From Fidelibacterota bacterium (GTDB lineage Bacteria > Fidelibacterota > Fidelibacteria > Fidelibacterales > Fidelibacteraceae), in the NCBI GenBank assembly GCA_034723415.1, contig JAYEOX010000027.1, forward strand, positions 1 to 56,327: a DNA stretch of 56,327 nt, given 5' to 3'. Under the pieces are notes generated by a model that was not told where the DNA came from, searched no databases, and was given only the letters and a program-made list of their open reading frames with translations. A program made the position numbers and the translations under genes. Below are positions 1,119 through 54,854 of this stretch, piece after piece (the stretch's first letter is position 1; each line of letters opens with the position of its first letter).

Positions 1119-1955
1119 ATGTTTGATGAAGTTATAAAATATGGTAATTCAAAAATTCAACATGGTAAGCATAGTGATAGAATATATTTGATGAAATTGG
1201 ATGATGCGGATGTCGGTTCTATTATTAATAAATTAGACAAATTAACTGAAGAGCATAAATATGGGAAAATATTTACAAAAATTCCTAAAAAGCACTTTGA
1301 GATATTTTTGAATGACGGATTTGAAAAAGAAGCGGAAATACCTAAATTTTATAATGGTGAAAACGACTGCGTATTCATGAGCAAGTTTCCTGTAGAAAAA
1401 AGAGGAGTTATCCAAGCAGATATTAAAAAGCGATTAAATGATGTTCTAACAGTATGTAAAGAGAAAGAGCAGTTGACTAAAGAGCCAAAAATTTCCGATG
1501 AATTTGAGTATAAAATATTGAAACATGAAGATGCTAAGCAATTAACTGAATTATATAAAGTTGTTTTTGCCAGTTATCCATTTCCAATTTATGATGAGAA
1601 TTATTTAAAGGAAACAATGGATGACAATATTATCTATTTTGGAATATTTTATAAAGGGAAATTGGTTAGTGCATCTTCTGCAGAAATGGATTTTGATGGA
1701 GAGAATGTAGAAATGACGGATTTTGCTACGCTGCCTGATTTTAGAGGAAATAATTTTGCCCAATTTTTGCTTTATCAAATGGAAAATGAAGTAATTAAAA
1801 AAGGGATAAAGACATTTTTCACGATTGCAAGGGGAGTTTCTTTCGGAATGAACATTACTTTTGCAAAGTTAGGATACAAATATGGCGGCACTTTGATTAA
1901 CAATACGAATATTTCCGGTAATATAGAAAATATGAATATTTGGTATAAAGAATAA
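1119..1955 (+). CDS. ablB: GNAT acetyltransferase, probable beta-lysine N6-acetyltransferase
   Basis: 278 aa with a C-terminal GNAT fold pattern (VEMTDFATLPDFRGNNFAQFLL). It lies directly downstream of kamA, as in ablA-ablB / yodO-yodP pairs. Confidence 0.7.
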   Translation: MFDEVIKYGNSKIQHGKHSDRIYLMKLDDADVGSIINKLDKLTEEHKYGKIFTKIPKKHFEIFLNDGFEKEAEIPKFYNGENDCVFMSKFPVEKRGVIQADIKKRLNDVLTVCKEKEQLTKEPKISDEFEYKILKHEDAKQLTELYKVVFASYPFPIYDENYLKETMDDNIIYFGIFYKGKLVSASSAEMDFDGENVEMTDFATLPDFRGNNFAQFLLYQMENEVIKKGIKTFFTIARGVSFGMNITFAKLGYKYGGTLINNTNISGNIENMNIWYKE

Positions 1956-2020
1956 AAATAATAGCAACTAACAAAAACTAACAATAACCAACAGCGTTAA
2001 TTGTGGATTGTGAATGGAGA

Positions 2021-2044
2021 CTGCTTGCCCACCACAGGCGGGGA
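2021..2044 (-). repeat. Inverted partial copy of the GC core of the 48-nt intergenic element
   Basis: The reverse complement tCCCCGCCtgtggtGGGCAaGcag matches tCCCCGCCatttcGGGCAGGaaat at 2125-2148. Confidence 0.8.
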
Positions 2045-2083
2045 GACAGGAAAACGGAAAAGGGAAACCGGAAGACTGAAAAT
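2042..2083 (+). repeat. Degenerate heptamer array A, (GGANNNN)x6
   Basis: ggagaca ggaaaac ggaaaag ggaaacc ggaagac tgaaaat, strict 7-nt register, about 83% purine. Lies in the ablB 3' intergenic region. Confidence 0.9.
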
Positions 2084-2118
2084 CTTATCAATTTATAAAA
2101 ATTTATTTTAAACTACAT

Positions 2119-2166
2119 TTAACATCCCCGCCATTTCGGGCAGGAAATATCCAACACGAAATATTC
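2119..2166 (+). repeat. 48-nt GC-cored intergenic element, copy 1
   Basis: ttaacatCCCCGCCATTTCGGGCAGGAAATATCCAACACGAAATATTC. Has a CCCG-N6-CGGG hairpin followed by an AATAT/ATATT AT-rich stem. Confidence 0.9.
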
Positions 2167-2202
2167 AATATTGAAGGTTAATACTACTTGATAATTGATA
2201 AA

Positions 2203-2290
2203 ATCTACGAAGTAGATAAATATTAATAACTATGGGTGTAACCCATAGAGGGAAGATAAACATCAACAACAAAGAACTACGAAGTAGTTC
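2203..2290 (+). other. Three perfect short hairpins (candidate structured RNA or DNA segment)
   Basis: 2203-2217 atctac-gaa-gtagat; 2230-2248 ctatggg-tgtaa-cccatag; 2274-2290 gaactac-gaa-gtagttc. Two share the ctacGAAgtag core. Confidence 0.8.
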
Positions 2291-2310
2291 AATAAGAAAC
2301 CAAATCTAAT

Positions 2311-2358
2311 TTAATATTCCCGTTATTGCGGGCAGGCAATATCCAATATGGAATATTC
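2311..2358 (+). repeat. 48-nt GC-cored intergenic element, copy 2
   Basis: ttaatatTCCCGTTATTGCGGGCAGGCAATATCCAATATGGAATATTC. Aligns without gaps to copy 1. The tail reads AATATCC AATATGG AATATTC, again with a 7-nt period. Confidence 0.9.
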
Positions 2359-2557
2359 ATTTGTTAATCTCTATCGTAAATAATAGGGCTAGCAGTGTGA
2401 AAATAAAATAGTTACCCACATCATTCACGATATGGATCAAAAAACACTACGCTACAACAACTCAAGGTTTTTACGCCTGCACACTTTTTTATCTTTTAAT
2501 TTCAAAAATTTAATTAATTGTTTTCAAATTCAAAAAAATATTGCTAATTTAAAATAT

Positions 2558-3403
2558 ATGCAGAATTTAGATAAAATATACGATTTTCATAATCACATTG
2601 TCTATGGTGTGGATGATGGCAGTGATTCATTAGAAAAATCAATAAAGATGCTTCGACAGGCGGCTGATCAAGGTGTTACAAATGTCGTTTGTACACCACA
2701 TCAATTTGAAACTGATGAACCAAGGATACTTTCTGAAAGGCAAAAAACAATAGTAGAAAGATTTAATATTCTCAAGGAAAAAGTTAAAGAGAAAAATATT
2801 CCAATTGAATTGTCACTTGGTTCTGAAATTATGTTTTTTAAGGATGTTAAGAAGTATTTAAAAAATCCGTATTTTACAATAAATAATAATAAATATGTAT
2901 TAATAGAATTCCATTTAATGGGACCGCCAATTGAGTTTGTAGATGTTTTTTATGACTTGATTGTTGCCGGATATGTTCCGATTTTGGCACATCCTGAAAG
3001 AATTGCCGGTCTATATGATGAAAGAAGAAGTTTAATTAAATTATTAAAAATGGGTGTCTTATTTCAGATTAATACAGGGAGTATTTTAGGATTATTGGGG
3101 AAAGGTGCACAAGAGAGTTCAAAAAAATATCTGGAGAATAATTGGATACATCTATTAGGCAGCGATGCTCATTCACTTAATTTTCGAAGAGGTTTTTCTA
3201 TGCAACAAGGTATAGAATATATTTCTAAAAATTATCCCCATATAAATTTAAAAGAAATTTTAGAAGTAAATCCCAAAGCTGTTATAAATGGTGAACATGT
3301 AGAAGTTGATATTTCTGATATTAAAATTAGAGTAAAATCACCAAAGAGTAATTTGAAAAAATTACTGAATAAAATTATCAAAAAAACTAAAAAAATAATA
3401 TAG
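2558..3403 (+). CDS. PHP-domain protein-tyrosine phosphatase (CpsB/CapC family)
   Basis: Motifs HNHIVYGVDDGS, CTPH, LAHPER and GSDAHS. I place the start at ATG 2558 (MQNLDKIYDFHNH), because the family starts just before the HxH motif. The tracked ORF start at 2432 adds 42 non-homologous residues. Confidence 0.8.
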   Translation: MQNLDKIYDFHNHIVYGVDDGSDSLEKSIKMLRQAADQGVTNVVCTPHQFETDEPRILSERQKTIVERFNILKEKVKEKNIPIELSLGSEIMFFKDVKKYLKNPYFTINNNKYVLIEFHLMGPPIEFVDVFYDLIVAGYVPILAHPERIAGLYDERRSLIKLLKMGVLFQINTGSILGLLGKGAQESSKKYLENNWIHLLGSDAHSLNFRRGFSMQQGIEYISKNYPHINLKEILEVNPKAVINGEHVEVDISDIKIRVKSPKSNLKKLLNKIIKKTKKII

Positions 3404-3408
3404 AATAT

Positions 3409-4029
3409 ATGTTTAAGGTAGAAAAGATCATAACCGGTGTTTTCCAAGAAAATACTTATTTAATTTATAATAATAAAGATGTAATTATTATTGATCCGGG
3501 TGATGATTTTGAAAAAATTGATCTGTTTATTAGGGAAAACGAATTATTACCAAAAGCAATTTTAGGAACACACGGTCATATCGATCATATTTCATCTGTT
3601 TATCCTTTAAAAGAAAAGTATAATATTCCGTTTTATTTAAATAGTAAAGAACAATCTAATCTTGATTATTTAGAATCAGTATCCGATAAGTATAATATTA
3701 AATATTGGGGGACCCCAAAAATTGATATAGATTTAGAAAATAAAAATGAGATTTCAATAGGTAAATTCAATTTTAAAATAATTCATTCTCCTGGTCATAC
3801 TTTAGGCGGTGTATTATTTAAAATAAATGATATTGTATTCTGTGGTGATACGATTTTTAAAAATTCAATTGGAAGAGTTGACCTTCCTGGTGGTGATATG
3901 AGAGTATTGAAGGATAGCATATTGAAAAATATTTACACATTACCTGAAGACACAAAGTTATACCCGGGACATCTTGGAATTACTACTGTAAAACATGAAA
4001 AATACAATAACCCTTATGTACATATTTGA
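3409..4029 (+). CDS. MBL-fold metallo-hydrolase (glyoxalase II / YcbL-like)
   Basis: HGHIDH (HxHxDH) motif, a later SPGHT motif and a terminal YPGH; about 206 aa. Confidence 0.85.
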   Translation: MFKVEKIITGVFQENTYLIYNNKDVIIIDPGDDFEKIDLFIRENELLPKAILGTHGHIDHISSVYPLKEKYNIPFYLNSKEQSNLDYLESVSDKYNIKYWGTPKIDIDLENKNEISIGKFNFKIIHSPGHTLGGVLFKINDIVFCGDTIFKNSIGRVDLPGGDMRVLKDSILKNIYTLPEDTKLYPGHLGITTVKHEKYNNPYVHI

Positions 4030-4050
4030 TAAACTAAATATTGAGGTATT

Positions 4051-4782
4051 ATGGAAACAATTTATAAAGCGTTAATTGGAGCAGGTATTGGCTGGGTAAT
4101 ATTAGGCCCGATGGGAGCAATAATAGGAGGAATGATCGGTGCTCAGTCTTCTAAACAAATTTCTAGAAAAAGACGATTTCATCCATATAGCCAAACACAA
4201 AAAGGTGATTTTTATGTAAGTTTAGTAGTTATTTTTGCTTATGTTGTGAAGGCAGATAAAAAAATCCGTAAAAGTGAAATTTCTTATGTTAAAAATTATT
4301 TGTTACAAAATGTAAGTAATCATAATTTAGTTCAAGATCTGATGAATATGTTAAAAAATGTGTTGGAAAAAGAGATAGAAATTCAAAAAATAACACAACA
4401 AATAGCGGATAATATGGATTATGCATCAAGATTACAACTTATACATTTGCTTTTTGGAATAGCTCTTGCTGATGGGGAATTACATTCATCTGAAAAAGAT
4501 GCAATTAGGCAAATAACAGTTCTTCTTAAACTTCCTATGCAAGATTATCAATCGATCTTTTCAATGTATCATCAAAAAAATAGAGATTCCGCATATAAAA
4601 TTTTAGAAATTTCTCCGGATGCTACTGTTGATGAGATCAAGAATGCATATAAAAAAATGGCTAATAAATATCACCCTGATAAGGTCTCACATCTTGGGGA
4701 AGATATGGTAAAAATGGCCGAAGAAAAATTTAAAGCTATTAATAATGCTTATAGTTCGATTCGCAAAAGAAAAGGTTTTTAG
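4051..4782 (+). CDS. djlA: DjlA-like co-chaperone (N-terminal TM, TerB-like domain, C-terminal J domain)
   Basis: N-terminal glycine-rich TM (GAGIGWVILGPMGAIIGGMIGA). C-terminal J domain: YKILEISPDATVDEIKNAYKKMANKYHPDK with the HPD motif. Confidence 0.75.
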   Translation: METIYKALIGAGIGWVILGPMGAIIGGMIGAQSSKQISRKRRFHPYSQTQKGDFYVSLVVIFAYVVKADKKIRKSEISYVKNYLLQNVSNHNLVQDLMNMLKNVLEKEIEIQKITQQIADNMDYASRLQLIHLLFGIALADGELHSSEKDAIRQITVLLKLPMQDYQSIFSMYHQKNRDSAYKILEISPDATVDEIKNAYKKMANKYHPDKVSHLGEDMVKMAEEKFKAINNAYSSIRKRKGF

Positions 4783-4824
4783 AATTTTATACTTGATTAA
4801 TTTTAATTTATTTTGGGGGGAATA

Positions 4825-6102
4825 ATGTCAATTAAATATGATGACAGCCATCTAATACCATCATTTAGACAAAAAGATTTAAATAAATTTAGACCCAAAA
4901 CGGTTGAATCATTAAATCTATTGAAAAATCGAAATGGATCCGGAAGTGAATTTCTCGGATGGTTAGATTTACCCAATCAAAATGTCGATGATTTAAAAGA
5001 ATTGATAGATGCAGGAAATGAGGTAAAGAATAGTAATGATTTGCTGGTTTGTATAGGAATTGGTGGAAGTTATTTGGGAGCAAAGGCAGTTATTTCATCA
5101 TTAATGCCTAAAAATAATATTCGGTTCATCGGTCATCATTTATCACCTTTAGGATTGTCACAATTACTTGAAGAATTAAAAGAAAAAGATTTTTATGTGA
5201 ATGTGATATCAAAATCCGGTACAACCACTGAGCCGGGAATCGCCTTTAGGATTATCAGAGAATTAGCCGAAAAGAAATATAGTAAAAGATCAAAAGATAG
5301 AATTATTGTTACAACAGATTCTGAAAAAGGTGCATTAAAACAATTAGCAGATCAGAAAGAATATAGAAAATTTGTTATTCCTAATGATGTTGGTGGAAGA
5401 TTTTCTGTTTTAACTCCGGTAGGATTATTACCGATCGTAGCCGCCGGTTTGGATATAAATTCTATATTAAATGGTGCAAAAATTGGATTAAAAAACTCAA
5501 TGATCCCTGATGATAAAAAAAATATTGCTATTAGATATGCACGCAACAGAAGTATTTTATATTCAAAAAAGAAAAAAATAGAAATATTGGCATCAATGGA
5601 TCCACAAATTCATTATATTGCAGAATGGTGGAAACAATTATACGGTGAAAGTGAAGGGAAAAATGGCAATGGAATTTTTCCGGCAAGTGTTGATTATACT
5701 ACCGATCTGCATAGTTTAGGTCAGTTAATTCAAGATGGTGAACGAAATATTTTTGAGACATTCTTAGTAATTGACAATTATTCAAATGACATTGAGATTC
5801 CTTATGATAATGGAAATTTAGATGGATTAAATTACTTGAGCGGGAAGAAATTAACTTTCGTAAATAGTAAAGCTTACGAGGGAACACTTAAAGCACATAT
5901 CAATGGGAATGTTCCCTGTTCAACTTTACATATTGAAAAATTAGATGAAGAAAATATAATGGAATTATTAGTAATTTTTGAAGTCGGGGTTGCACTTTCC
6001 GCATATAATTTAGGTGTAAATCCATTTGATCAACCCGGAGTTGAAACTTATAAAAATAACATGTTTGAATTGCTCGGTAAACCAAAATTTATTAATAATT
6101 GA
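4825..6102 (+). CDS. pgi: Glucose-6-phosphate isomerase (short bacterial/archaeal type)
   Basis: GIGGSYLG, SKSGTTTEP, GGRFSVL and YGESEGK motifs. I prefer the ATG at 4825, preceded by a GGGGGG SD-like run at 4815-4820; the tracked start at 4813 is TTG. Confidence 0.9.
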   Translation: MSIKYDDSHLIPSFRQKDLNKFRPKTVESLNLLKNRNGSGSEFLGWLDLPNQNVDDLKELIDAGNEVKNSNDLLVCIGIGGSYLGAKAVISSLMPKNNIRFIGHHLSPLGLSQLLEELKEKDFYVNVISKSGTTTEPGIAFRIIRELAEKKYSKRSKDRIIVTTDSEKGALKQLADQKEYRKFVIPNDVGGRFSVLTPVGLLPIVAAGLDINSILNGAKIGLKNSMIPDDKKNIAIRYARNRSILYSKKKKIEILASMDPQIHYIAEWWKQLYGESEGKNGNGIFPASVDYTTDLHSLGQLIQDGERNIFETFLVIDNYSNDIEIPYDNGNLDGLNYLSGKKLTFVNSKAYEGTLKAHINGNVPCSTLHIEKLDEENIMELLVIFEVGVALSAYNLGVNPFDQPGVETYKNNMFELLGKPKFINN

Positions 6103-6159
6103 AATAAGTAAAGAAGTGTAATTAGAAATAAGTAGAAAACATATTTGTTTGGAGGATAA

Positions 6160-7245
6160 ATGGATAAAATAGAAAAGATAAATTATAAAGACATTGTGTT
6201 AGTATTAGATGCAATGGGCGGGGATGATGCCCCAAAGATTACAGTAAAAGGGGCATGTAAAGCAAGTTTAAAAAATGAATTTAAAACAATTCTTGTTGGA
6301 GATGAAACAAAGATTACAACATATTTGAAAAAGTACAAGCACGATGAAAATAAAATTCAAATTGTACATGCAGCAGATGAAATAAAGATGGGTGATCATC
6401 CGAAAGATGTCTTACGAAATCCAAATACTTCTATTGGAATTGCCGCAAAAATAGTTGGAGATAATAAAGGTGATGCGTTGATTTCAGCTGGAAATACCGG
6501 AGCTGTTATTTTGGCAACAACAAAGAATATTGATAGAATTGTAGGTGTGCGAAGAACGGCATTAGCAACAATTTATCCGACACACAATTCTCAGAAAAGA
6601 GATGATATTTTTTCGTTGATATTAGATGTTGGGGCAAATGTTCATAATTTAGCTCACGAAATAATTCATTTTGCATTTATGGGAAGTGCTTATGTAAAAG
6701 CGATTAAAGGGATAGAATCACCTACAATTGGTTTGCTGAATATAGGTTCAGAAGAGTATAAAGGTGGTGAAGTATTGTCAAGAGCTTATACGATACTTAA
6801 ATCAATTCCGAGTTTAAATTTTTTTGGAAATGTAGAAGGAAACGATTTGATGAAAGGGCTTGTAGATGTTGTTGTAACCGAAGGAATAACCGGAAACATT
6901 GCAATAAAAACCATTGAAGGAATGGCGGGTTCGATGAAGGAAGTTGGGAAAATTGCATTTAAACATAATATGATTTGGAAAATGGGAATGGTAATGTTAG
7001 CGAGTGGAATTAAAAAATTGCAAGATATTACTGATTTTGAAACTTATGGTGGTGCTCCGGTATTTGGATTTGAAAAAACGGTCATAAAATGTCATGGACG
7101 TTCAACTGAAAAATCAATAAACAACGCACTTGTTTTGGCAGCAAAATCAGTTCATGAAAATATGAGTGGTACAATTTCAAGATCAATTGCACATTTTGAG
7201 CACCGTAATGGATTAGAAGAAATTGGAAGAGAAATTAATTATTAA
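6160..7245 (+). CDS. plsX: Phosphate acyltransferase PlsX
   Basis: LDAMGGDDAP, SAGNTGA and GGAPVFG motifs; about 360 aa. Confidence 0.9.
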   Translation: MDKIEKINYKDIVLVLDAMGGDDAPKITVKGACKASLKNEFKTILVGDETKITTYLKKYKHDENKIQIVHAADEIKMGDHPKDVLRNPNTSIGIAAKIVGDNKGDALISAGNTGAVILATTKNIDRIVGVRRTALATIYPTHNSQKRDDIFSLILDVGANVHNLAHEIIHFAFMGSAYVKAIKGIESPTIGLLNIGSEEYKGGEVLSRAYTILKSIPSLNFFGNVEGNDLMKGLVDVVVTEGITGNIAIKTIEGMAGSMKEVGKIAFKHNMIWKMGMVMLASGIKKLQDITDFETYGGAPVFGFEKTVIKCHGRSTEKSINNALVLAAKSVHENMSGTISRSIAHFEHRNGLEEIGREINY

Positions 7246-7277
7246 TATTTCACGTAAAGAAAGAGGCTCACACATAT

Positions 7278-7291
7278 CTGCTGCGGGCAGG
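7278..7291 (+). repeat. Partial copy of the element core (TGCGGGCAGG)
   Basis: In ctgcTGCGGGCAGG, 10/10 nt match 2327-2336 of copy 2. The flanks are not homologous. Confidence 0.6.
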
Positions 7292-7368
7292 TAAAGTTAT
7301 GAAGACGCAAAGAAGAAAAATAAGTTATAAAATTGTAAAAACTCAACAAAAGGATTTTTTTATTATAT

Positions 7369-7417
7369 GGAAAACGGAGGACGGAGATAGGAAACTGGAG
7401 GACGGTGAACGGAGAAA
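7369..7417 (+). repeat. Degenerate heptamer array B, (GGANNNN)x7
   Basis: ggaaaac ggaggac ggagata ggaaact ggaggac ggtgaac ggagaaa, strict 7-nt register. Lies in the plsX 3' intergenic region. Confidence 0.9.
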
Positions 7418-7444
7418 AATTTCTAATTTCTAACCAAATTACAC

Positions 7445-7491
7445 TTAATATTTCCGCCATTGTGGGCAGGCAATATTAACACGGAATATCT
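7445..7491 (+). repeat. GC-cored intergenic element, copy 3 (47 nt)
   Basis: ttaatatTTCCGCCATTGTGGGCAGGCAATATTAACACGGAATATCT. It has a 1-nt deletion in the tail relative to copies 1 and 2. The stem becomes TCCG/TGGG (two G-T wobbles). Confidence 0.9.
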
Positions 7492-7513
7492 AATTATAAA
7501 GTCGTGAAATTGT

Positions 7514-7548
7514 GTTAAAACTTTTGAAGTTTTAACTTATTTTATTAC
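7514..7548 (+). terminator. Putative intrinsic terminator (AU-rich stem plus T-rich tail)
   Basis: gttaaaact-tttga-agttttaac is a perfect 9-bp stem, followed by ttattttattac. The T-tract is present only on the + strand. Confidence 0.45.
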
Positions 7549-7673
7549 AATAATTTCAATTGTTTTATATTTTATTTGCTCAAAATTCGGAAGTTTTTTG
7601 TATAAGTTTTAAAAAACTAAAAAAAATGATTGGTTAAATAGAAAATAATTAATATATTTAAAGATAATGAGTA

Positions 7674-9602
7674 ATGTTGAAAATTAAGAAAAATATGAGT
7701 GAAAAAATTAAAATAAAATTACCTGACGGTACAGAGAAAAATTTCCCTAAAGGATCGACTTCCTATGATGTTGCTTTGTCAATAAGTAAAGGATTAGCGG
7801 AACACAGTTATCTTGCAAAAGTAAATGATAAATTAGTTGATTTAAATGCGAAATTAAAAAATGATTCTAATGTTGAATTAATTACAGATAAATCTCCTGA
7901 ATTAGAAGAAGTTTTACTTCACAGTGCAGCACATGTTATGGCCCAAGCAGTAAAGAGATTATATCCAAAAGTAAAAGTAGCAATAGGTCCGGCTATAGAG
8001 AATGGATTTTATTATGATTTCGATTTTGATGAACCTTTAACAGAAGCTGATTTACCGAAAATCGAAAAAGAGATGAAAAAGATCATAGACGAAGATTATT
8101 CTATAGAAAGAAAAGAGATCAGTAAAAAGGAAGCGATAGAATATTTTTCAAATCCAAAAGAGAATTATAAATTGGAAATAATTGATGAATTCCCTGATAA
8201 TGAACAAATATCTTTATATTCACAAGGTGATTTTACCGATCTATGTCGTGGACCTCATCTTCCTTCAACCGGAAAAATTAAGGCATTTAAATTACTTAGT
8301 GTTGCCGGTGCATATTGGCGTGGTGATGAAAAGAACAAAATGCTTTCGAGAATTTATGGAACTGCTTTCATTAGTAAGAAGAAATTAAATAAATATTTAA
8401 ATTTGCTTGAGGAAGCGAAGAAACGCGATCATCGAAAGTTAGGTAAACAGCTTGATCTTTTTGATATATCGGAACAGGTTGGGCAAGGTTTAGTTTTATG
8501 GTATCCAAAAGGAGCGACACTAAAAAAGATAATTGAAGATTTCTGGTTTAAAGAACATAAAAAAAATGATTATGAACTTGTTTTATCACCTCATATTGGA
8601 AAATCAGGTCTTTGGGAAACATCAGGTCATTTGGATTTTTACAGAGAATCTATGTATCCGCCAATGGATGTAGAGGGACAGGATTATTATATTAAACCGA
8701 TGAATTGTCCATTCCATATTATGATCTATCAACGAAGACAACAGAGTTATCGTGATCTTCCGGTAAGATATGCGGAATTGGGAACTGTCTATCGTTATGA
8801 ATTATCCGGAGCTTTACACGGTTTAATGAGAGTGAGAGGATTTACACAAGATGATGCTCACATTATTTGTACTCCGGATCAACTTGATGAAGAAATTGAA
8901 AAATTAATAGCATTTTCGTTTGAATTTTTAAAAGCTTTTGGATTCAAAAAATTTGAGGTCTTTTTATCAACTATACCGACGGATAAATATGTTGGTGAAC
9001 CCGCAAAATGGAAAAAAGCACAAGATTCATTAAGCCTATCATTGGAAAAAATGAAAGTTCCATATGAAATTGACGAAGGTGGAGGTGCTTTTTACGGGCC
9101 TAAAATAGACATAAAAATTAGAGACGCAATTGGCAGATTATGGCAATGCACAACAATTCAGTTCGATTTTAATTTACCGGAAAGATTTGATATGAATTTT
9201 ACAGCATCAGATGGAACCAATCAGAGACCATATATGATCCATAGGGCAATTATGGGTTCATTAGAAAGATTTATTGGAATTTTGTTAGAGGATACTGCCG
9301 GTAATTTACCTGTATGGTTGTCTCCTTATCAAGTATGTATTATTCCGATAACAGACAGACAAGTTGAATATGTTAAAAAAATAGATAAAAAGTTAAAAGA
9401 TAATTCAATAAGAAGTAAGATAAATGCTCATCAAGAAAAAGTAGGTGCCAAAATTCGCACAGCTGAATTAGAAAAAATTCCATATATGCTGATAATTGGT
9501 GATAAAGAGATGGAAAGTGGAAAAGTCAGTGTTAGAAAACATGGTTCGGGTGATCAAGGAAAAATGTTATTAGATGAATTTATAAAGAACATTAAAAATT
9601 AA
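7674..9602 (+). CDS. thrS: Threonine--tRNA ligase
   Basis: N-terminal TGS (IKIKLPDGT), editing-domain HSAAHV, and class II motifs (FRGFTQDDAH-like RVRGFTQDDAHI). An alternative start at ATG 7695 (MSEKIKIKLPDG) is possible. Confidence 0.95.
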   Translation: MLKIKKNMSEKIKIKLPDGTEKNFPKGSTSYDVALSISKGLAEHSYLAKVNDKLVDLNAKLKNDSNVELITDKSPELEEVLLHSAAHVMAQAVKRLYPKVKVAIGPAIENGFYYDFDFDEPLTEADLPKIEKEMKKIIDEDYSIERKEISKKEAIEYFSNPKENYKLEIIDEFPDNEQISLYSQGDFTDLCRGPHLPSTGKIKAFKLLSVAGAYWRGDEKNKMLSRIYGTAFISKKKLNKYLNLLEEAKKRDHRKLGKQLDLFDISEQVGQGLVLWYPKGATLKKIIEDFWFKEHKKNDYELVLSPHIGKSGLWETSGHLDFYRESMYPPMDVEGQDYYIKPMNCPFHIMIYQRRQQSYRDLPVRYAELGTVYRYELSGALHGLMRVRGFTQDDAHIICTPDQLDEEIEKLIAFSFEFLKAFGFKKFEVFLSTIPTDKYVGEPAKWKKAQDSLSLSLEKMKVPYEIDEGGGAFYGPKIDIKIRDAIGRLWQCTTIQFDFNLPERFDMNFTASDGTNQRPYMIHRAIMGSLERFIGILLEDTAGNLPVWLSPYQVCIIPITDRQVEYVKKIDKKLKDNSIRSKINAHQEKVGAKIRTAELEKIPYMLIIGDKEMESGKVSVRKHGSGDQGKMLLDEFIKNIKN

Positions 9603-39554: not shown

Positions 39555-40004
39555 ATGAAGAAATTAATTACAACAGTAAAAGTTCGAAGTTATGAATTAG
39601 ATTCTTTCAAACATATAAATAACGGTGTTTATGCTCATTATCTTGAAAAAGCTCGTGGTGACTATCTTCAACAAATTGGTCTTACTTTTACAAGTTTTGA
39701 TGAATTAAAAGCTTGGCCGGTAATTGCACATTTGGAAATTGATTATAAATATCCGGCTTTTTTTGGTGAAGAACTTTCAATCGAAGCTGTGGTATCAGCA
39801 TTAGGAAAATCCTCAATTACATTAAATTATAAAATGTATAATCAGGATAGAAAGTTAATAATTACAGCATCTACGAGGATGGTATTTGTTGGAGAAAATG
39901 GAAAACCAACACAAATGCCGGAAGTATTTAGAAAGGGGTTTGTTAAATACGGAGACAGGAAACTGGAAACCGGAGACCGGAAACGGCAAAATAAAAGGAG
40001 TTAA
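39555..40004 (+). CDS. Acyl-CoA thioesterase (4HBT/YbgC family) with a repeat-encoded C-terminal tail
   Basis: VRSYELDSFKHINNGVYAHYLEKAR hot-dog motif. The last ~18 aa (YGDRKLETGDRKRQNKRS) are translated from heptamer array C. Confidence 0.8.
   Translation: MKKLITTVKVRSYELDSFKHINNGVYAHYLEKARGDYLQQIGLTFTSFDELKAWPVIAHLEIDYKYPAFFGEELSIEAVVSALGKSSITLNYKMYNQDRKLIITASTRMVFVGENGKPTQMPEVFRKGFVKYGDRKLETGDRKRQNKRS
39951..39992 (+). repeat. Degenerate heptamer array C, (GGANNNN)x6, overlapping the thioesterase 3' end
   Basis: ggagaca ggaaact ggaaacc ggagacc ggaaacg gcaaaat. It starts (GGAGACAGGAAA) and ends (AAAAT) like array A. Confidence 0.9.
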
Positions 40005-40090: not shown

Positions 40091-40125
40091 TTTTTCTTTT
40101 CTCCTGTTTCTGTTTTCCGGTTTCT
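40091..40125 (-). repeat. Heptamer array D (inverted orientation)
   Basis: The reverse complement reads agaaacc ggaaaac agaaaca ggagaaa agaaaaa. tccggtttc (40116-40124) is the exact complement of gaaaccgga (39966-39974). Confidence 0.85.
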
Positions 40126-40137
40126 GAAAAAATAACA

Positions 40138-41457
40138 ATGAAAAATATATTTAAAATAAAAAATTTAATTAAAAAAATAATATCCGTTTTTCGTTCTTCG
40201 TTTTTCGTTCTTCGTTATTTTATCCTAATAATTTTTATTGTTACTAATATATTCGGAAAAATCTTGATTCCAATGGATGAAAGTCAAAATAATCATTTAA
40301 AAAGTTACGGAATTGCTTTTTGGGTATTGCAGAATGGTGAAAATGTTGATTGGCTATTAAATTACAGAGGTGGTTCTTTTGCGGTTGAAAATTACAGTAA
40401 CATCAAAAAGGAATGTCTGATCAGAGGAGTTACATTTGAAGAAGTAAGTGCATCTGAATATAATGCCATTTTAAGCACAATTGAAAATAATAATATGGAT
40501 GTAATGGTTTTAGAAAAAGAGCCGAAAATTGCCGTATATACACCTCCAAATAAGATGCCTTGGGATGATGCGGTTACATTGGCATTGACTTATGCTGAAA
40601 TTCCATATGAAACAATTTATGATAGAGAAATACTCCAAGGAAAGCTAAAAGAGTATGATTGGTTACATTTACATCACGAGGATTTTACAGGACAATACGG
40701 TAAATTTTATAGAAATTATAGAAATACAAGTTGGTATAAAAATGATAAAAGAACTCAGGAGGCACTAGCATCTTCTCTTGGATTTGAAAAAGTATCAAAA
40801 TTAAAACGATCTATTGCTTTTTATATAAAAAAATATGTAGCTCAAGGTGGGTTTATGTTTGCGATGTGTGCAGCAACTGATTCTTATGAAATTGCTTTAG
40901 CTTCTAAAAATATAGATATAGTTGCTTCGGTTTTTGATGGTGATGGAGTTGATAATAATATACAAAGCAAATTGGATTTTAGTCAAACATTTGCTTTTGA
41001 GAATTTTAAATTAATTACGAATCCATTGATCTATGAATTTTCAAATATTGATATTCCACCGAGTAATAAGCCATTTCTAACAAATCCAAGCAAAGATTAT
41101 TTTTCACTTTTTGAATTTTCTGCCAAATTTGATCCGGTTCCAACAATGCTTACACAAGATCACCGTTCGATCATTAAGGGATTTATGGGACAAACTACCG
41201 GATTTAATAGAAAGGTTATAAAGAAACATGTATTAATAATGGGTGAAGTTAAAAATACAGATATGGTAAAATATATTCATGGAAATTACGGAAAAGGAAC
41301 ATTTACATACTATGGTGGGCACGATCCGGCTGATTATAAACATTTTGTTGGTGATCCGCCTACAAATTTAGATCTACATAAAAACAGTCCGGGTTACAGG
41401 TTAATATTAAATAATGTTTTGTTTCCGGCAGCTAAAAAGCAGAAGAGGAAGACATAA
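40138..41457 (+). CDS. Conserved secreted/membrane-anchored protein of unknown function
   Basis: 439 aa with an N-terminal hydrophobic anchor. Strongly conserved-looking blocks: LLNYRGGSF, LTYAEIPYE, HLHHEDFTGQYGKF, PGYRLILNNVLFPAA. From memory this matches an FCB-group family often mislabelled 'asparagine synthetase B'; unverified. Confidence 0.7.
   Translation: MKNIFKIKNLIKKIISVFRSSFFVLRYFILIIFIVTNIFGKILIPMDESQNNHLKSYGIAFWVLQNGENVDWLLNYRGGSFAVENYSNIKKECLIRGVTFEEVSASEYNAILSTIENNNMDVMVLEKEPKIAVYTPPNKMPWDDAVTLALTYAEIPYETIYDREILQGKLKEYDWLHLHHEDFTGQYGKFYRNYRNTSWYKNDKRTQEALASSLGFEKVSKLKRSIAFYIKKYVAQGGFMFAMCAATDSYEIALASKNIDIVASVFDGDGVDNNIQSKLDFSQTFAFENFKLITNPLIYEFSNIDIPPSNKPFLTNPSKDYFSLFEFSAKFDPVPTMLTQDHRSIIKGFMGQTTGFNRKVIKKHVLIMGEVKNTDMVKYIHGNYGKGTFTYYGGHDPADYKHFVGDPPTNLDLHKNSPGYRLILNNVLFPAAKKQKRKT
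40184..40218 (-). repeat. Heptamer array E (inverted orientation), inside the first codons of the 40138 CDS; contains a perfect 14-bp tandem duplication
   Basis: ccgtttt tcgttct tcgtttt tcgttct tcgttat. gtttttcgttcttc occurs at 40186-40199 and again at 40200-40213. Confidence 0.9.
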
Positions 41458-41504
41458 TTGGTGAGTGGGTGACTTTGTGAAAGAGAGACAAGGAGATAGG
41501 GAGG

Positions 41505-41544
41505 CTTTGTGACTTTGAGATTTTGTGACTTTGAGACTTTGAGA
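41505..41544 (+). repeat. Octamer tandem array F (CTTTGWGA x5)
   Basis: ctttgtga ctttgaga ttttgtga ctttgaga ctttgaga, plus an orphan unit at 41473-41480. Preceded by a GGA-type purine patch aagagagacaaggagatagggagg (41481-41504). Confidence 0.9.
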
Positions 41545-41768
41545 TTAGGTAACAATGGATTTAAAATATATTTGGTTGTGGAATTTAAAAATCTCAATTT
41601 CAAAATGATTATTTATTAAATTATTAGTATTCTTGTGGTTCTCTTTGTGTTTTTTGCGAAGACGGCGTTAAAATTAAAATTCTAAAAATGAAACTTGATT
41701 AATTAAAAATAATTCTTTAATTTATGACTAAAATAAGGGAGAAGTAAAATAATAAAAGAGAGGATAAA

Positions 41769-51459: not shown

Positions 51460-53469
51460 TTGTTAAAAATAAAAATAGTAATAATAGTGATCGCTTTCTT
51501 TACATTTGGGTGTTCAAGTACATCAAAAAGTATTGAGAAAAATGATAAAGTTAATACTGATAGTTCAATTGTAAATAATGTAGAAAGTGAAAATTTTGAA
51601 AATAAATCAGTAGAAGATAGTAATGCTGTAATAGAATCAGCTTTTGAAAGTGATCGTTTCCAGGTTTTATTTAATGAAGCAAAAATTCATTTTGCTGATG
51701 CTTTAATTGCACAGTATGAAAAAGATACTGTTGAAGTTGAATTACAATTGAGATTGACATTTGAGTCGTTATCGGATATTGAGGTTTTTAATAACTTGGG
51801 TGAAATTGAGTATAACGAATTAATGCGTTTTACTAATCGTCTGATTCACGATTTTAGGAAATACGTTCCGGATAAGGCTAAATTAAATGAACAATTTTCT
51901 GTAAGTGATATGCGTGAATCAATGGAATATTTGGCTGAAGATTATATTGTTCCCGATACTAAAGAAAAAATTAAAATAATTGAAGATAGAGAAGGTCATA
52001 TTCCGATAATATTAAATAATAGAGTTGAAAGAATAATTAATTATTTCCAATCAAAAGGAAAAAATATATTCCAAATATGGTTAAATAGTAAGTCAAAATA
52101 TGAAGTTTTATTTAATAAAATATTAGATGAAAAAGAAATGCCAAAAGAACTTATATATCTTGCTATGATAGAGAGTGGTTTTAAGCCAACAGCATATTCT
52201 TATGCTTATGCTGTGGGACAATGGCAATTTATTTATGCTACTGGTAAACGATATGGATTAAATCGAGATTATTGGGTGGATGAGAGGAGAGATCCCGTGA
52301 AATCTACTTATGCAGCAGCTAATTATTTAAAAGATCTATATGATTATTATGGCGACTGGTATCTATCTATGGCCGCCTATAATGCCGGCAGGGGAAGAAT
52401 TAATAGGGCAATTAGATATAATGATACAAGAGATTTCTGGAAAATGCATTCGCTTCCAAGGCAGACAAGAAATTATGTTCCTACAGTTTTGGCAGCAACA
52501 ATAATAAGCATGGATCCGGAAAAGTATGGTTTTCAACTTCCAAAGATAGCTACTGATAAGTATGAATATGATACTCTGCGTATTAAAAATAGTATAGAAT
52601 TAAGAAGTATTGCTAAAATATGTAATACTAAATATTCAACAATAAAGGAATTAAATCCGGAGTTGAGAAGATATTCAACTCCAAATTATGACTATGTTTT
52701 AAAAATACCAAAAGGACAAAGGAATAAAGTTAAAGGTTCAATTTCTAAAAAAATTAATGATAAAGTTAAAGAAGTTGAATATTCTGTCTATAAGGTAAAA
52801 AGAGGTGACTCATTGATCAGAATCAGTAGGATATTTGGTGTATCTGTTAGTGATATAATGTCTGTTAATCATTTAAGGAATCGTCAGCCAATATTAATTG
52901 GACAAAAACTTATAATACCTAAATCCGGATCTGTTAGAAGTACGACAAAAAGAGCATATGGAAATTATTCATCAACTCATAATAAAGTTATTTATAAAGT
53001 TAAAAAAGGTGATAATTTAGGAGCAATTGCTGAAAATTTTGGTATAAGAGCTTCAAATATTAGGAGTTGGAACAACTTAAGATATAGAGAATATATATAT
53101 CCGGGACAAAAATTAACTATTTGGACAAAGAGATCAAATTATTCTACGTCATCAAATCATAAAGTAATTTATACAATTAAAAAAGGTGATAATTTAGGTG
53201 GTATTGCTGAAATATACAATACTAGAGCAGCAGAAATTCGTAAATGGAATAATTTTTCTTATGGTAAAACAATTTATCCCGGACAAAAAATAGTTATTTG
53301 GATACCTGATAATAGTAATTCATCAAGTAATTATTATACAGTTCGTCGTGGAGATAGTTTAAAGTTAATTTCTAAAAGAATAAATGTATCAGTTCAAAAG
53401 TTGAAGCGTTTAAACCCTAATATAACACCTTCAAAAATTTATCCCGGTGATAAAATAAGGATTAATTAA
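51460..53469 (+). CDS. Lytic transglycosylase (SLT domain) with multiple C-terminal LysM repeats (MltD-like), TTG start
   Basis: Lipobox-like FTFGCSS and an SLT catalytic block MIESGFKP...GQWQF...AAYNAG. Four to five LysM repeats of the form Y.VKKGD.L..IA......I..WN. Confidence 0.85.
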   Translation: MLKIKIVIIVIAFFTFGCSSTSKSIEKNDKVNTDSSIVNNVESENFENKSVEDSNAVIESAFESDRFQVLFNEAKIHFADALIAQYEKDTVEVELQLRLTFESLSDIEVFNNLGEIEYNELMRFTNRLIHDFRKYVPDKAKLNEQFSVSDMRESMEYLAEDYIVPDTKEKIKIIEDREGHIPIILNNRVERIINYFQSKGKNIFQIWLNSKSKYEVLFNKILDEKEMPKELIYLAMIESGFKPTAYSYAYAVGQWQFIYATGKRYGLNRDYWVDERRDPVKSTYAAANYLKDLYDYYGDWYLSMAAYNAGRGRINRAIRYNDTRDFWKMHSLPRQTRNYVPTVLAATIISMDPEKYGFQLPKIATDKYEYDTLRIKNSIELRSIAKICNTKYSTIKELNPELRRYSTPNYDYVLKIPKGQRNKVKGSISKKINDKVKEVEYSVYKVKRGDSLIRISRIFGVSVSDIMSVNHLRNRQPILIGQKLIIPKSGSVRSTTKRAYGNYSSTHNKVIYKVKKGDNLGAIAENFGIRASNIRSWNNLRYREYIYPGQKLTIWTKRSNYSTSSNHKVIYTIKKGDNLGGIAEIYNTRAAEIRKWNNFSYGKTIYPGQKIVIWIPDNSNSSSNYYTVRRGDSLKLISKRINVSVQKLKRLNPNITPSKIYPGDKIRIN

Positions 53470-54649: not shown

Positions 54650-54742
54650 TTGTCAGGTGGAAAAAAACGAAAAAAAAGAAAAATAAAAAATCATAAGAGA
54701 AAAAAAAGATTAAGAAAAAATCGTCATAAGAAAAAAAAGTAA
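54650..54742 (+). CDS. 30-aa lysine/arginine-rich mini-protein, bS22-like (AURKAIP1/COX24-type) candidate ribosomal protein; TTG start; absent from the ORF track
   Basis: ttg tca ggt gga aaa aaa cga ... aag taa gives (M)SGGKKRKKRKIKNHKRKKRLRKNRHKKKK. SD GGGGGA at 54638-54643 lies 6 nt upstream. The KRKKR..K.HK.KKRLR..RHK pattern resembles mycobacterial/Bacteroidota bS22. Confidence 0.6.
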   Translation: MSGGKKRKKRKIKNHKRKKRLRKNRHKKKK

Positions 54743-54854
54743 TTTAGCAATTCTATTTTTCAAGATAATAAAGATTAATATTTAATATAATTATTTGTGT
54801 TTATTAATGAATAAATTAAATATTAAATAGTTATTTTCATTATATTATATAAAA

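Follow-up and report, generated by a model that had tools for sequence, protein, structure and literature searches.

The 56,327-nt contig JAYEOX010000027.1 of assembly GCA_034723415.1 (positions 1 to 56,327, forward strand; hereafter the window), from a Fidelibacterota bacterium, carries several short purine-rich arrays at gene boundaries in which the triplet GGA recurs every 7 nt, the (GGA-N4)n heptamers. The window has a GC content of 28% and belongs to a Fidelibacterota (Marinimicrobia) genome related to TCS52: its PlsX protein shares 92% identity with the one from “Marinimicrobia bacterium TCS52” and 85% to 88% with those of 3 Candidatus Neomarinimicrobiota metagenome-assembled genomes (MAGs). 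The phylum is now called Fidelibacterota, and TCS52 represents a GTDB lineage near Fidelibacter (PMC11652737). The window shows a strongly positive GC skew (about +0.2 to +0.3), the + strand has a purine excess and carries all but 2 of the long open reading frames (ORFs), and the skew approaches zero only at 34 to 38 kb, the site of the 2 minus-strand genes. Array A separates a lysine-2,3-aminomutase/GNAT gene pair from a CpsB/CapC-like gene; array B stands between plsX and the genes thrS-infC-rpmI-rplT-pheST; and array C sits at the end of a 4HBT thioesterase gene, followed by the gene for a 439-aa protein (ORF 40138) and htpG. The array-flanking genes share no functional theme. The analysis covered about 62 kb of the window species and, for close relatives, about 90 kb; the loci of these relatives are denoted by L numbers (L004 is from TCS52, L005 from CSMAG_502, and L175 from the GMC6 MAG).

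Arrays A, B, and C lie exactly where the first-pass annotation had placed them (Table 1) and keep a strict 7-nt register over 5 to 7 units. A search for (GGAN4)x3+GGA with at most 1 mismatch returned 10 overlapping matches in the window, all on the + strand and all within these 3 arrays, against 0.10 ± 0.33 matches (maximum 2) in dinucleotide shuffles, which upholds the earlier judgment that the arrays are not chance low complexity. No further (GGAN4)x2GGA run was present on either strand of the window. When all 64 triplets were tested at periods 5 to 10, GGA at period 7 ranked first; the other periodic triplets were nearly all A/T-only, the exceptions being a period-7 array at 40185 and the TTG of a period-8 array at 41506. 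A motif-blind period-7 autocorrelation retrieved A, C, and the interval 40178-40226. The arrays are identical across independent Logan assemblies (several sequencing runs, one study) and are therefore not assembly artifacts. Extending the window by ~4.4 kb rightward and ~1.2 kb leftward via exact-protein look-ups yielded no additional arrays, an all-against-all intergenic comparison yielded no other repeat families in common with them, and Rfam 15 gave no match at gathering score over the whole window and only chance-level ones at E up to 10 in 1900-7800.

Table 1. Heptamer arrays, their orthologs, and associated repeats (coordinates refer to the window unless a locus is named; TRF, Tandem Repeats Finder).
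Feature	Coordinates	Strand	Composition	Position
Array A	2042..2083	+	6 heptamer units, 5 with GGA: GGAGACA GGAAAAC GGAAAAG GGAAACC GGAAGAC TGAAAAT	~86 nt past stop of GNAT (ablB-like) gene
Array B	7369..7417	+	7 units, 6 with GGA: GGAAAAC GGAGGAC GGAGATA GGAAACT GGAGGAC GGTGAAC GGAGAAA	~123 nt past plsX stop, 5' of thrS-infC-rpmI-rplT
Array C	39951..39992	+	6 units, 5 with GGA: GGAGACA GGAAACT GGAAACC GGAGACC GGAAACG GCAAAAT	Within final 54 nt of thioesterase ORF
Array C2	~40091..40126	-	Degenerate inverted array, TRF period 14; minus strand: AGAAACC GGAAAAC AGAAACA GGAGAAA AGAAAAA	~12 nt 5' of ORF 40138 start
Array N	40185..40216	-	Inverted heptamer array; minus strand: (GAAGAAC GAAAAAC)x2 = (GAARAAC)n, GAA in place of GGA	Codons 16-27 of ORF 40138
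N ortholog, L170	2660-2715		GGA units, inverted	Same place in ORF 40138 homolog
N ortholog, L175	1866-1907		GGA units, inverted	Same place in ORF 40138 homolog
N ortholog, L176	1901-1942		GGA units, inverted	Same place in ORF 40138 homolog
Period-8 array	41501..41552	+	(TGAGACTT/TGTGACTT)n; distinct repeat family	Just past ORF 40138 stop
D3a	2108..2169	+	D3 copy; its core is the right stem arm around A	Begins ~24 nt past array A
D3b	2299..2361	+	D3 copy, no array ahead of it	Same intergenic block as D3a
D3c	7433..7494	+	D3 copy	Begins ~15 nt past array B
D3 partial copy	7274-7294		Direct	
Left arm (D3 partial copy)	2024..2044		Inverted partial D3 core, CTTGCCC...GGCGGGGA; weak minus-strand nhmmer match	

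In total, 3 strict and 2 degenerate arrays of a single unit family occur in the 56 kb, and the same unit profile recurs in 4 related lineages. The profile, GGARAMN, carries 1.6 to 1.9 bits at GGA, 1.4 bits at position 5, and <0.8 bits at positions 4, 6, and 7. The degenerate arrays, C2 and N, are inverted; in the window, array N is a 100% identical duplication with a 14-nt unit in 2.3 copies, and GAA stands in all 4 repeated units. A further GGA patch that had been proposed at 41481-41504 holds about 2 units in register but then runs into the period-8 array.

All 5 arrays lie within ~125 nt of a gene end, and no gene-interior array was found in the window (3 independent loci only). The first-pass annotation had described the purine strand as the sense strand throughout, at or just past the stop codon of a + strand gene. 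This orientation is correct for A, B, and C but not for C2 and N, which are inverted at a gene 5' end; inverted arrays are placed likewise in all 4 array-bearing lineages. The arrays are indeed near gene ends, although A and B start ~86 and ~123 nt beyond the stop and C is inside an ORF. A 7-nt period is, as had been pointed out, no coding periodicity, but it does not keep arrays out of ORFs. Arrays A, B, C, C2, and N and the B array of L004 all follow one placement rule, by which the G-rich strand lies just 3' of the 5' neighboring ORF. Array A is 86 nt from its 5' neighbor versus 348 nt on the other side, and array B 123 versus 256 nt. Array C extends over the stop region, C2 stands on the non-coding strand 12 nt away from the start, and N extends over the start region.

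Comparison with orthologous sites showed that array length varies among related genomes. For array B, unit counts are 7 in the window, 3 in L004, and 0 in L005, L006, and L007; for array C, 6 in the window, 4 in L175, ~4 in L176, and 0 in L170, L171, and L177; and for array N, 5 in the window, 8 in L170, 6 each in L175 and L176, and 0 in L177. The TCS52 ortholog of array B (L004 11131-11151) is located ~56 nt past the plsX stop, its start is identical to that of window B (ATGGAAAACGGAG / ATGGAAAACGGAGACTGGATGCG), and the gene downstream differs from that in the window. The L175 ortholog of array C (GGAGACG GGAGACA GGAAACG GAAAAAT) starts and ends as C does with 2 units fewer, and that of L176 loses the 7-nt register after ~4 units. 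Array C2 is missing in L176, where the thioesterase gene and the ORF 40138 homolog overlap. Adjacent identical N units are found lineage by lineage, namely GGAAAAC x2 in L170, GGAAAAT x2 in L175, and GGAGAAC x2 in L176; together with the perfect 14-nt duplication of the window and the presence of GAA in all 4 repeated units of its array N, they form a signature of recent slippage.

Turnover extends to the surroundings of arrays A and B. The intergenic block between the ablB-like and cpsB-like genes of the window (1956-2512) measures ~480 to 560 nt. In L004 and L005, the same gene pair is separated by ~110 to 170 nt of AT-rich DNA that contains neither an array nor D3, a ~60-nt dispersed repeat with the core CCGNNATTNNGGGCAGGNAATAT and 3 + strand copies in the window. 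The short spacer of these relatives indicates that the window carries a ~400-nt lineage-specific block holding array A, D3a, and D3b. This inserted block supplies codons 1 to 27 of the called ORF 2432-3403, the homologs of which align from residue 28 on; the true start of the gene is probably further downstream. At array B, synteny breaks right after plsX (window 7245-7674), with the array and D3c at the breakpoint, and the window then continues with thrS-infC-rpmI-rplT-pheS-pheT. The gene following plsX in TCS52, CSMAG_502, and GMC6 is UDP-glucose dehydrogenase-like by eye, and that of MAG206 is another gene.

Arrays that overlap ORF ends are translated. Across lineages, the N region measures 96, 117, 108, and 117 nt; the differences (21, 9, and 0 nt) are all multiples of 3, so that the frame is kept and array N is read as protein, which places 13 to 20 extra residues after the lysine-rich start of the ORF 40138 protein and ahead of its hydrophobic segment. 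In the more distant L177, which has no N array, the charged N-terminus joins the hydrophobic segment directly; the heptamer-encoded insert is missing from the more distant MAG206 homolog. The 439-aa ORF 40138 product has a signal-anchor-like N-terminus and no Pfam or NCBIfam match. Array C is translated as the thioesterase tail GDRKLETGDRKRQN. In the thioesterase, the 4HBT domain reaches to about residue 127-129. Homologs from distant relatives are 131 to 135 aa long, and those from close relatives measure 141 to 156 aa and end in unrelated purine-encoded tails.

The variable units, lost triplet, lost register, occurrence in both orientations, junk tails, and association with an insertion and a breakpoint argue for a simple-sequence repeat (SSR) family and not for a conserved cis-regulatory RNA. 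The arrays are probably, if by no means securely, a lineage-specific family of imperfect heptanucleotide SSRs that resemble the short tandemly repeated repetitive (STRR) sequences of cyanobacteria and have no demonstrated function. The analysis shows the arrays to be non-random, of one family, subject to turnover between lineages, translated where they overlap ORFs, and placed by a common pattern; we infer that slippage generates them and that they serve no sequence-specific function. Arrays would be created and remodeled as blocks of 7 or 14 nt are gained and lost by strand slippage, might be copied now and then to new sites, and would persist at gene boundaries because they are tolerated there. 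Where an array overlaps an ORF end, it would be read through as an unconserved C- or N-terminal tail. Where an inverted partner is present (C2 for array C; the D3 arms for array A), the upstream message would carry a long stem-loop at its 3' end, with a putative terminator or mRNA-stabilizing effect.

The STRR1-3 units of cyanobacteria are CCCCAGT, TTGGTCA, and CAACAGT. These heptanucleotides were reportedly described by Mazel et al. in 1990. The likeness to STRRs noted in the first-pass annotation is borne out, in that the arrays are tandem 7-nt units of one family at gene boundaries; both are tandem heptanucleotides in several dispersed arrays that are mainly intergenic, lineage-specific, and without established function. 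STRRs differ in having other unit sequences, in being closer to perfect and more numerous, and in belonging to another phylum. Rehm et al. cite them as 3 tandem heptanucleotides of Calothrix PCC 7601 (PMC4692102). Heptamers are the over-represented SSR class in many bacteria, possibly because the polymerase footprint favors 7-nt slippage (earlier work relayed in PMC4692102). The TAACTGA direct repeats (MacGregor 2015, PMC4679880), which occur in Beggiatoaceae, Cyanobacteria, and some Bacteroidetes, are likewise heptamers with many intergenic sets of 2 to 6 copies, but they are perfect copies located mostly a few nucleotides before starts, on the sense strand, whereas the arrays described here are degenerate and mostly past stops.

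The closest parallel in placement is provided by G-rich heptameric SSRs with the unit GGGAATC in Xanthomonas and GGGGA(C/T)T in Nostoc (Rehm et al. 2015, PMC4692102). These are over-represented between co-directional ORFs, lie on the coding strand ≤50 bp past a stop or on the non-coding strand ahead of a start, are always closer to the 5' neighbor, and occur as single arrays or inverted pairs (PMC4692102). Their loci are common to sister species with “extensive length and sequence variation,” the genes beside them follow no functional theme, and the repeats themselves have no known function (PMC4692102). The arrays of the window share with them 7-nt units with a kept G-tract and a variable rest, dispersal, placement, orientation, and occurrence singly or as inverted pairs. 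They differ in having 2-G tracts and no predicted G-quadruplex (G4), in residing in a genome of 28% GC from another phylum, in showing no visible 4-unit preference, and in entering ORF ends, where they are translated. None contains the at least 4 tracts of at least 3 Gs that characterize a G4 heptamer. Conservation among sister genomes, judged here from a small sample, seems lower than the 83% reported for Xcc/Xac (PMC4692102).

A search of IMG/VR viral contigs with (GGARRNN)x5 returned at least 120 loci (L020-L139) of all GC contents, mostly perfect heptamer microsatellites of many unrelated unit types, and this variety of units marks the pattern as too unspecific for a metagenome scan. The matches show GGARR-type heptamer repeats to be very common in such contigs. 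Among the viral matches listed, 20 of the 31 intergenic arrays were closer to the 5' neighbor, a weak trend given that crude ORF calls are unreliable in GC-rich contigs. Imperfect viral arrays with units as in the window, among the matches listed, include L093, (GGAAACT/GGAAACC)n, as well as L029 and L061.

Several observations weigh against locally generated repeats devoid of function. GGA and position 5 are far better kept than positions 4, 6, and 7 (48 units from 5 lineages), which neutral decay would not predict, although GGA-based detection of units inflates the apparent conservation of GGA. Array N has been kept at one site over 4 lineages, the adjoining thioesterases of which are only about 80% identical, suggesting continual regeneration or selection. 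No length polymorphism was found within the window species, in which only the flanks carry single-nucleotide polymorphisms (SNPs; 3 to 5 independent assemblies per array, 8 runs, one study), and the arrays are therefore not hypermutable on short time scales. The period-8 repeat, unlike the heptamer arrays, is polymorphic in length within a species: the spacer containing it differs by 26 nt between 2 samples of the L170 species (L170 3959-4289 versus L171 2461-2765). Finally, the first 12 nt are common to arrays A and C. The first-pass annotation had read their similar beginnings and ends as implying common descent; the shared start is real, but the support is only marginal (P about 0.03, post hoc, under a unit-profile model), and long in-register matches among arrays are expected from the restricted unit vocabulary (P about 0.24 under the same model). 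Together with the D3 copies past both A and B, the shared start hints at dispersal in a larger element instead of purely local slippage.

Such an element would be a small composite dispersed repeat similar to MITEs (miniature inverted-repeat transposable elements), repetitive extragenic palindromic (REP) sequences, or bacterial interspersed mosaic elements (BIMEs), in which an array, an AT-rich spacer, and D3, sometimes with inverted arms, form internal parts. A D3 copy follows both A and B, its conserved core beginning 45 nt past the end of array A and 37 nt past array B, and the last ~20 nt of the 2 spacers are similar. The left arm, an inverted partial copy of the D3 core, pairs with 2125-2144 (-32 kcal/mol, z = -3.07, equalled or bettered by 0 of 200 shuffles), which makes array A the loop of a ~120-nt stem-loop enclosed by D3-core arms. 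The absence of A, D3a, and D3b from sister genomes as one block, the similar starts and ends of A and C, and the position of B at a synteny breakpoint would all fit dispersal of such a unit, as would the recurrence of a 26-nt motif from the array A block, AATATTAATAACTATGGGTGTAACCC (window 2204-2290), at a non-syntenic intergenic site of the GMC6 MAG. The arrays resemble REPs, BIMEs, and MITEs in being dispersed and intergenic, and REP-like 3' stem-loops would result from the pairing of C with C2 and from the D3 arms that enclose A. In those families, however, the core is a palindrome and not a run of tandem heptamers, and we identified neither terminal inverted repeats with target-site duplication nor clear boundaries here. 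D3b has no array, and C, C2, N, and the arrays of relatives, including the TCS52 ortholog of B, have no D3. The repeat was found only in the window species, with 3 copies: the core was found neither in the relatives' loci nor in viral contigs (0 matches), and its 21 matches in JGI metagenomes were all chance hits in GC-rich contigs with dissimilar flanks. In the window, no transposase or REP-associated tyrosine transposase (RAYT) gene was seen, a result that says nothing about the genome as a whole. We regard a composite element as unlikely, while granting it a genuine chance of being correct.

D3c carries one population SNP, at 7453. The D3 repeat could form a small hairpin, YCCG-N6-YGGG, with wobble changes only, and the minus strand of its core has a promoter-like spacing, TTGCCT-17 nt-TATTAA. 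On the minus strand, 3 terminator-like hairpins occur in 1955-2437 against 0.3 expected. The AATATTAATAACTATGGGTGTAACCC motif matches the GMC6 site (L175 3320-3440) at 24 of 26 positions and is flanked by hairpins in both genomes (CTAC-GAA-GTAG x2 in the window; ACTCC-GTA-GGAGT x2 in L175), which suggests a second small dispersed element or noncoding RNA common to the clade.

The arrays could instead act at the RNA level, as single-stranded platforms in untranslated regions where one GGA per 7 nt is read by a multimeric RNA-binding protein that regulates the flanking genes; analogies to HutP, TRAP, and CsrA-type sponges had been drawn in this sense. GGA is kept while N4 varies, arrays on their own are predicted to be almost unstructured (-4 to -8 kcal/mol) and occupy transcribed-looking positions between co-directional genes, and S1, Csp, and CsrA have been put forward, though not shown, as binders of the TAACTGA repeats (PMC4679880). 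HutP and TRAP sites likewise repeat a conserved triplet at fixed short spacing, and in HutP sites the triplet plus 4 nt gives a 7-nt register, but HutP sites consist of UAG/NAG triplets, not GGA, in 2 sets of 3 before a terminator in the hut leader; no hut genes flank the arrays and no + strand terminator follows them. TRAP sites comprise ~11 (G/U)AG triplets with 2- to 3-nt spacers, against 5 to 7 GGA units at 4-nt spacing here. In CsrA sites, GGA stands in a hairpin loop and does not form 7-nt tandem units. The CsrB and RsmY/Z sponges, which like the arrays concentrate many GGA motifs in a short stretch, expose them in hairpin loops at irregular 10- to 30-nt spacing and are discrete small-RNA genes, each with a promoter and a terminator of its own; the arrays are predicted to be unstructured, have no flanking terminator, no convincing flanking promoter in a sigma-70 scan, and no Rfam match. 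The analogies thus find no support here, nor do the arrays look like a conserved RNA element: they are not conserved at orthologous sites, occur in both orientations relative to genes and within coding sequence, slip out of register in L176, and include a GAA-only array, N, which persists in the window. The flanking genes (GNAT/cpsB, plsX/thrS, and thioesterase/439-aa protein) have no common function. A tblastn search with approximate query sequences for CsrA, HutP, TRAP, and Hfq found nothing in the window and the relatives' loci, which is weak evidence and uninformative for the whole genome. An RNA-binding role is improbable.

No better prospects attach to the idea that the arrays are structural gene-boundary elements, either inverted-pair hairpins that terminate transcription or protect the upstream mRNA 3' end or 2-tetrad G4s. 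Besides the stem around A, arrays C and C2 together form a hairpin (-41.3 kcal/mol, z = -2.36, equalled or bettered by 1 of 200 shuffles), and placement and orientation are those of the G4-forming Xanthomonas and Nostoc heptamers, inverted pairs included. The array B region, however, folds no better than shuffles (z = -0.98), partner arrays are missing in several lineages, and an intrinsic-terminator scan found no + strand terminator at any array and no T-run terminator past them. The tracts are GG, not GGG, and folding with G-quadruplex energies in ViennaRNA predicted ordinary weak hairpins and no G4 for the arrays.

More speculative still is a unifying proposal, to which we give quite a low chance, that the (GGA-N4)n arrays and the Xanthomonas and Nostoc heptamers are orientation-specific gene-boundary signals with a 7-nt footprint per subunit of an RNA- or single-stranded-DNA-binding multimer. 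If so, transcripts leaving an ORF (sense 3' of it, antisense at its 5' side) would be marked for termination, protection, or decay, and turnover would be tolerated as long as several in-register GGA units remained. It is highly improbable that array N is a contingency locus in which gain or loss of 7-nt units switches the putative secreted or membrane protein of ORF 40138 on and off: the array does separate the charged N-terminus from the hydrophobic segment and its unit number differs by lineage, but all 4 lineages are in frame, the units are imperfect, 5 independent assemblies of the window species show no length variation, and one array only would be explained.

Heptameric repeats are known to be over-represented in bacteria, and the SSR family that we favor adds a case with a different unit from an uncultured low-GC phylum. 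It offers a locus-level view of how arrays grow and shrink, shed the core motif, and turn into translated tails of proteins. Recurrence of the same placement rule across phyla gives a modest hint of a common mechanism or constraint. For genome annotation, neither the C-terminal tail of the thioesterase nor the N-terminal insert of ORF 40138 nor the called start of ORF 2432 is a conserved protein feature; all 3 are artifacts of repeats or insertions.

Two other features of the window are unconnected with the arrays. An A-rich tract at 54652-54744, detected by TRF between an HU-like gene and xseA, may encode a very basic 30-aa peptide, MSGGKKRKKRKIKNHKRKKRLRKNRHKKKK, with a TTG start; the peptide has no NCBIfam match and is left uncalled by gene callers on Logan contigs. 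Inside the 669-aa ORF 51460-53469, a 162-nt direct repeat with 72% identity (52964-53125 and 53141-53302) is presumably an internal duplication of a protein domain.

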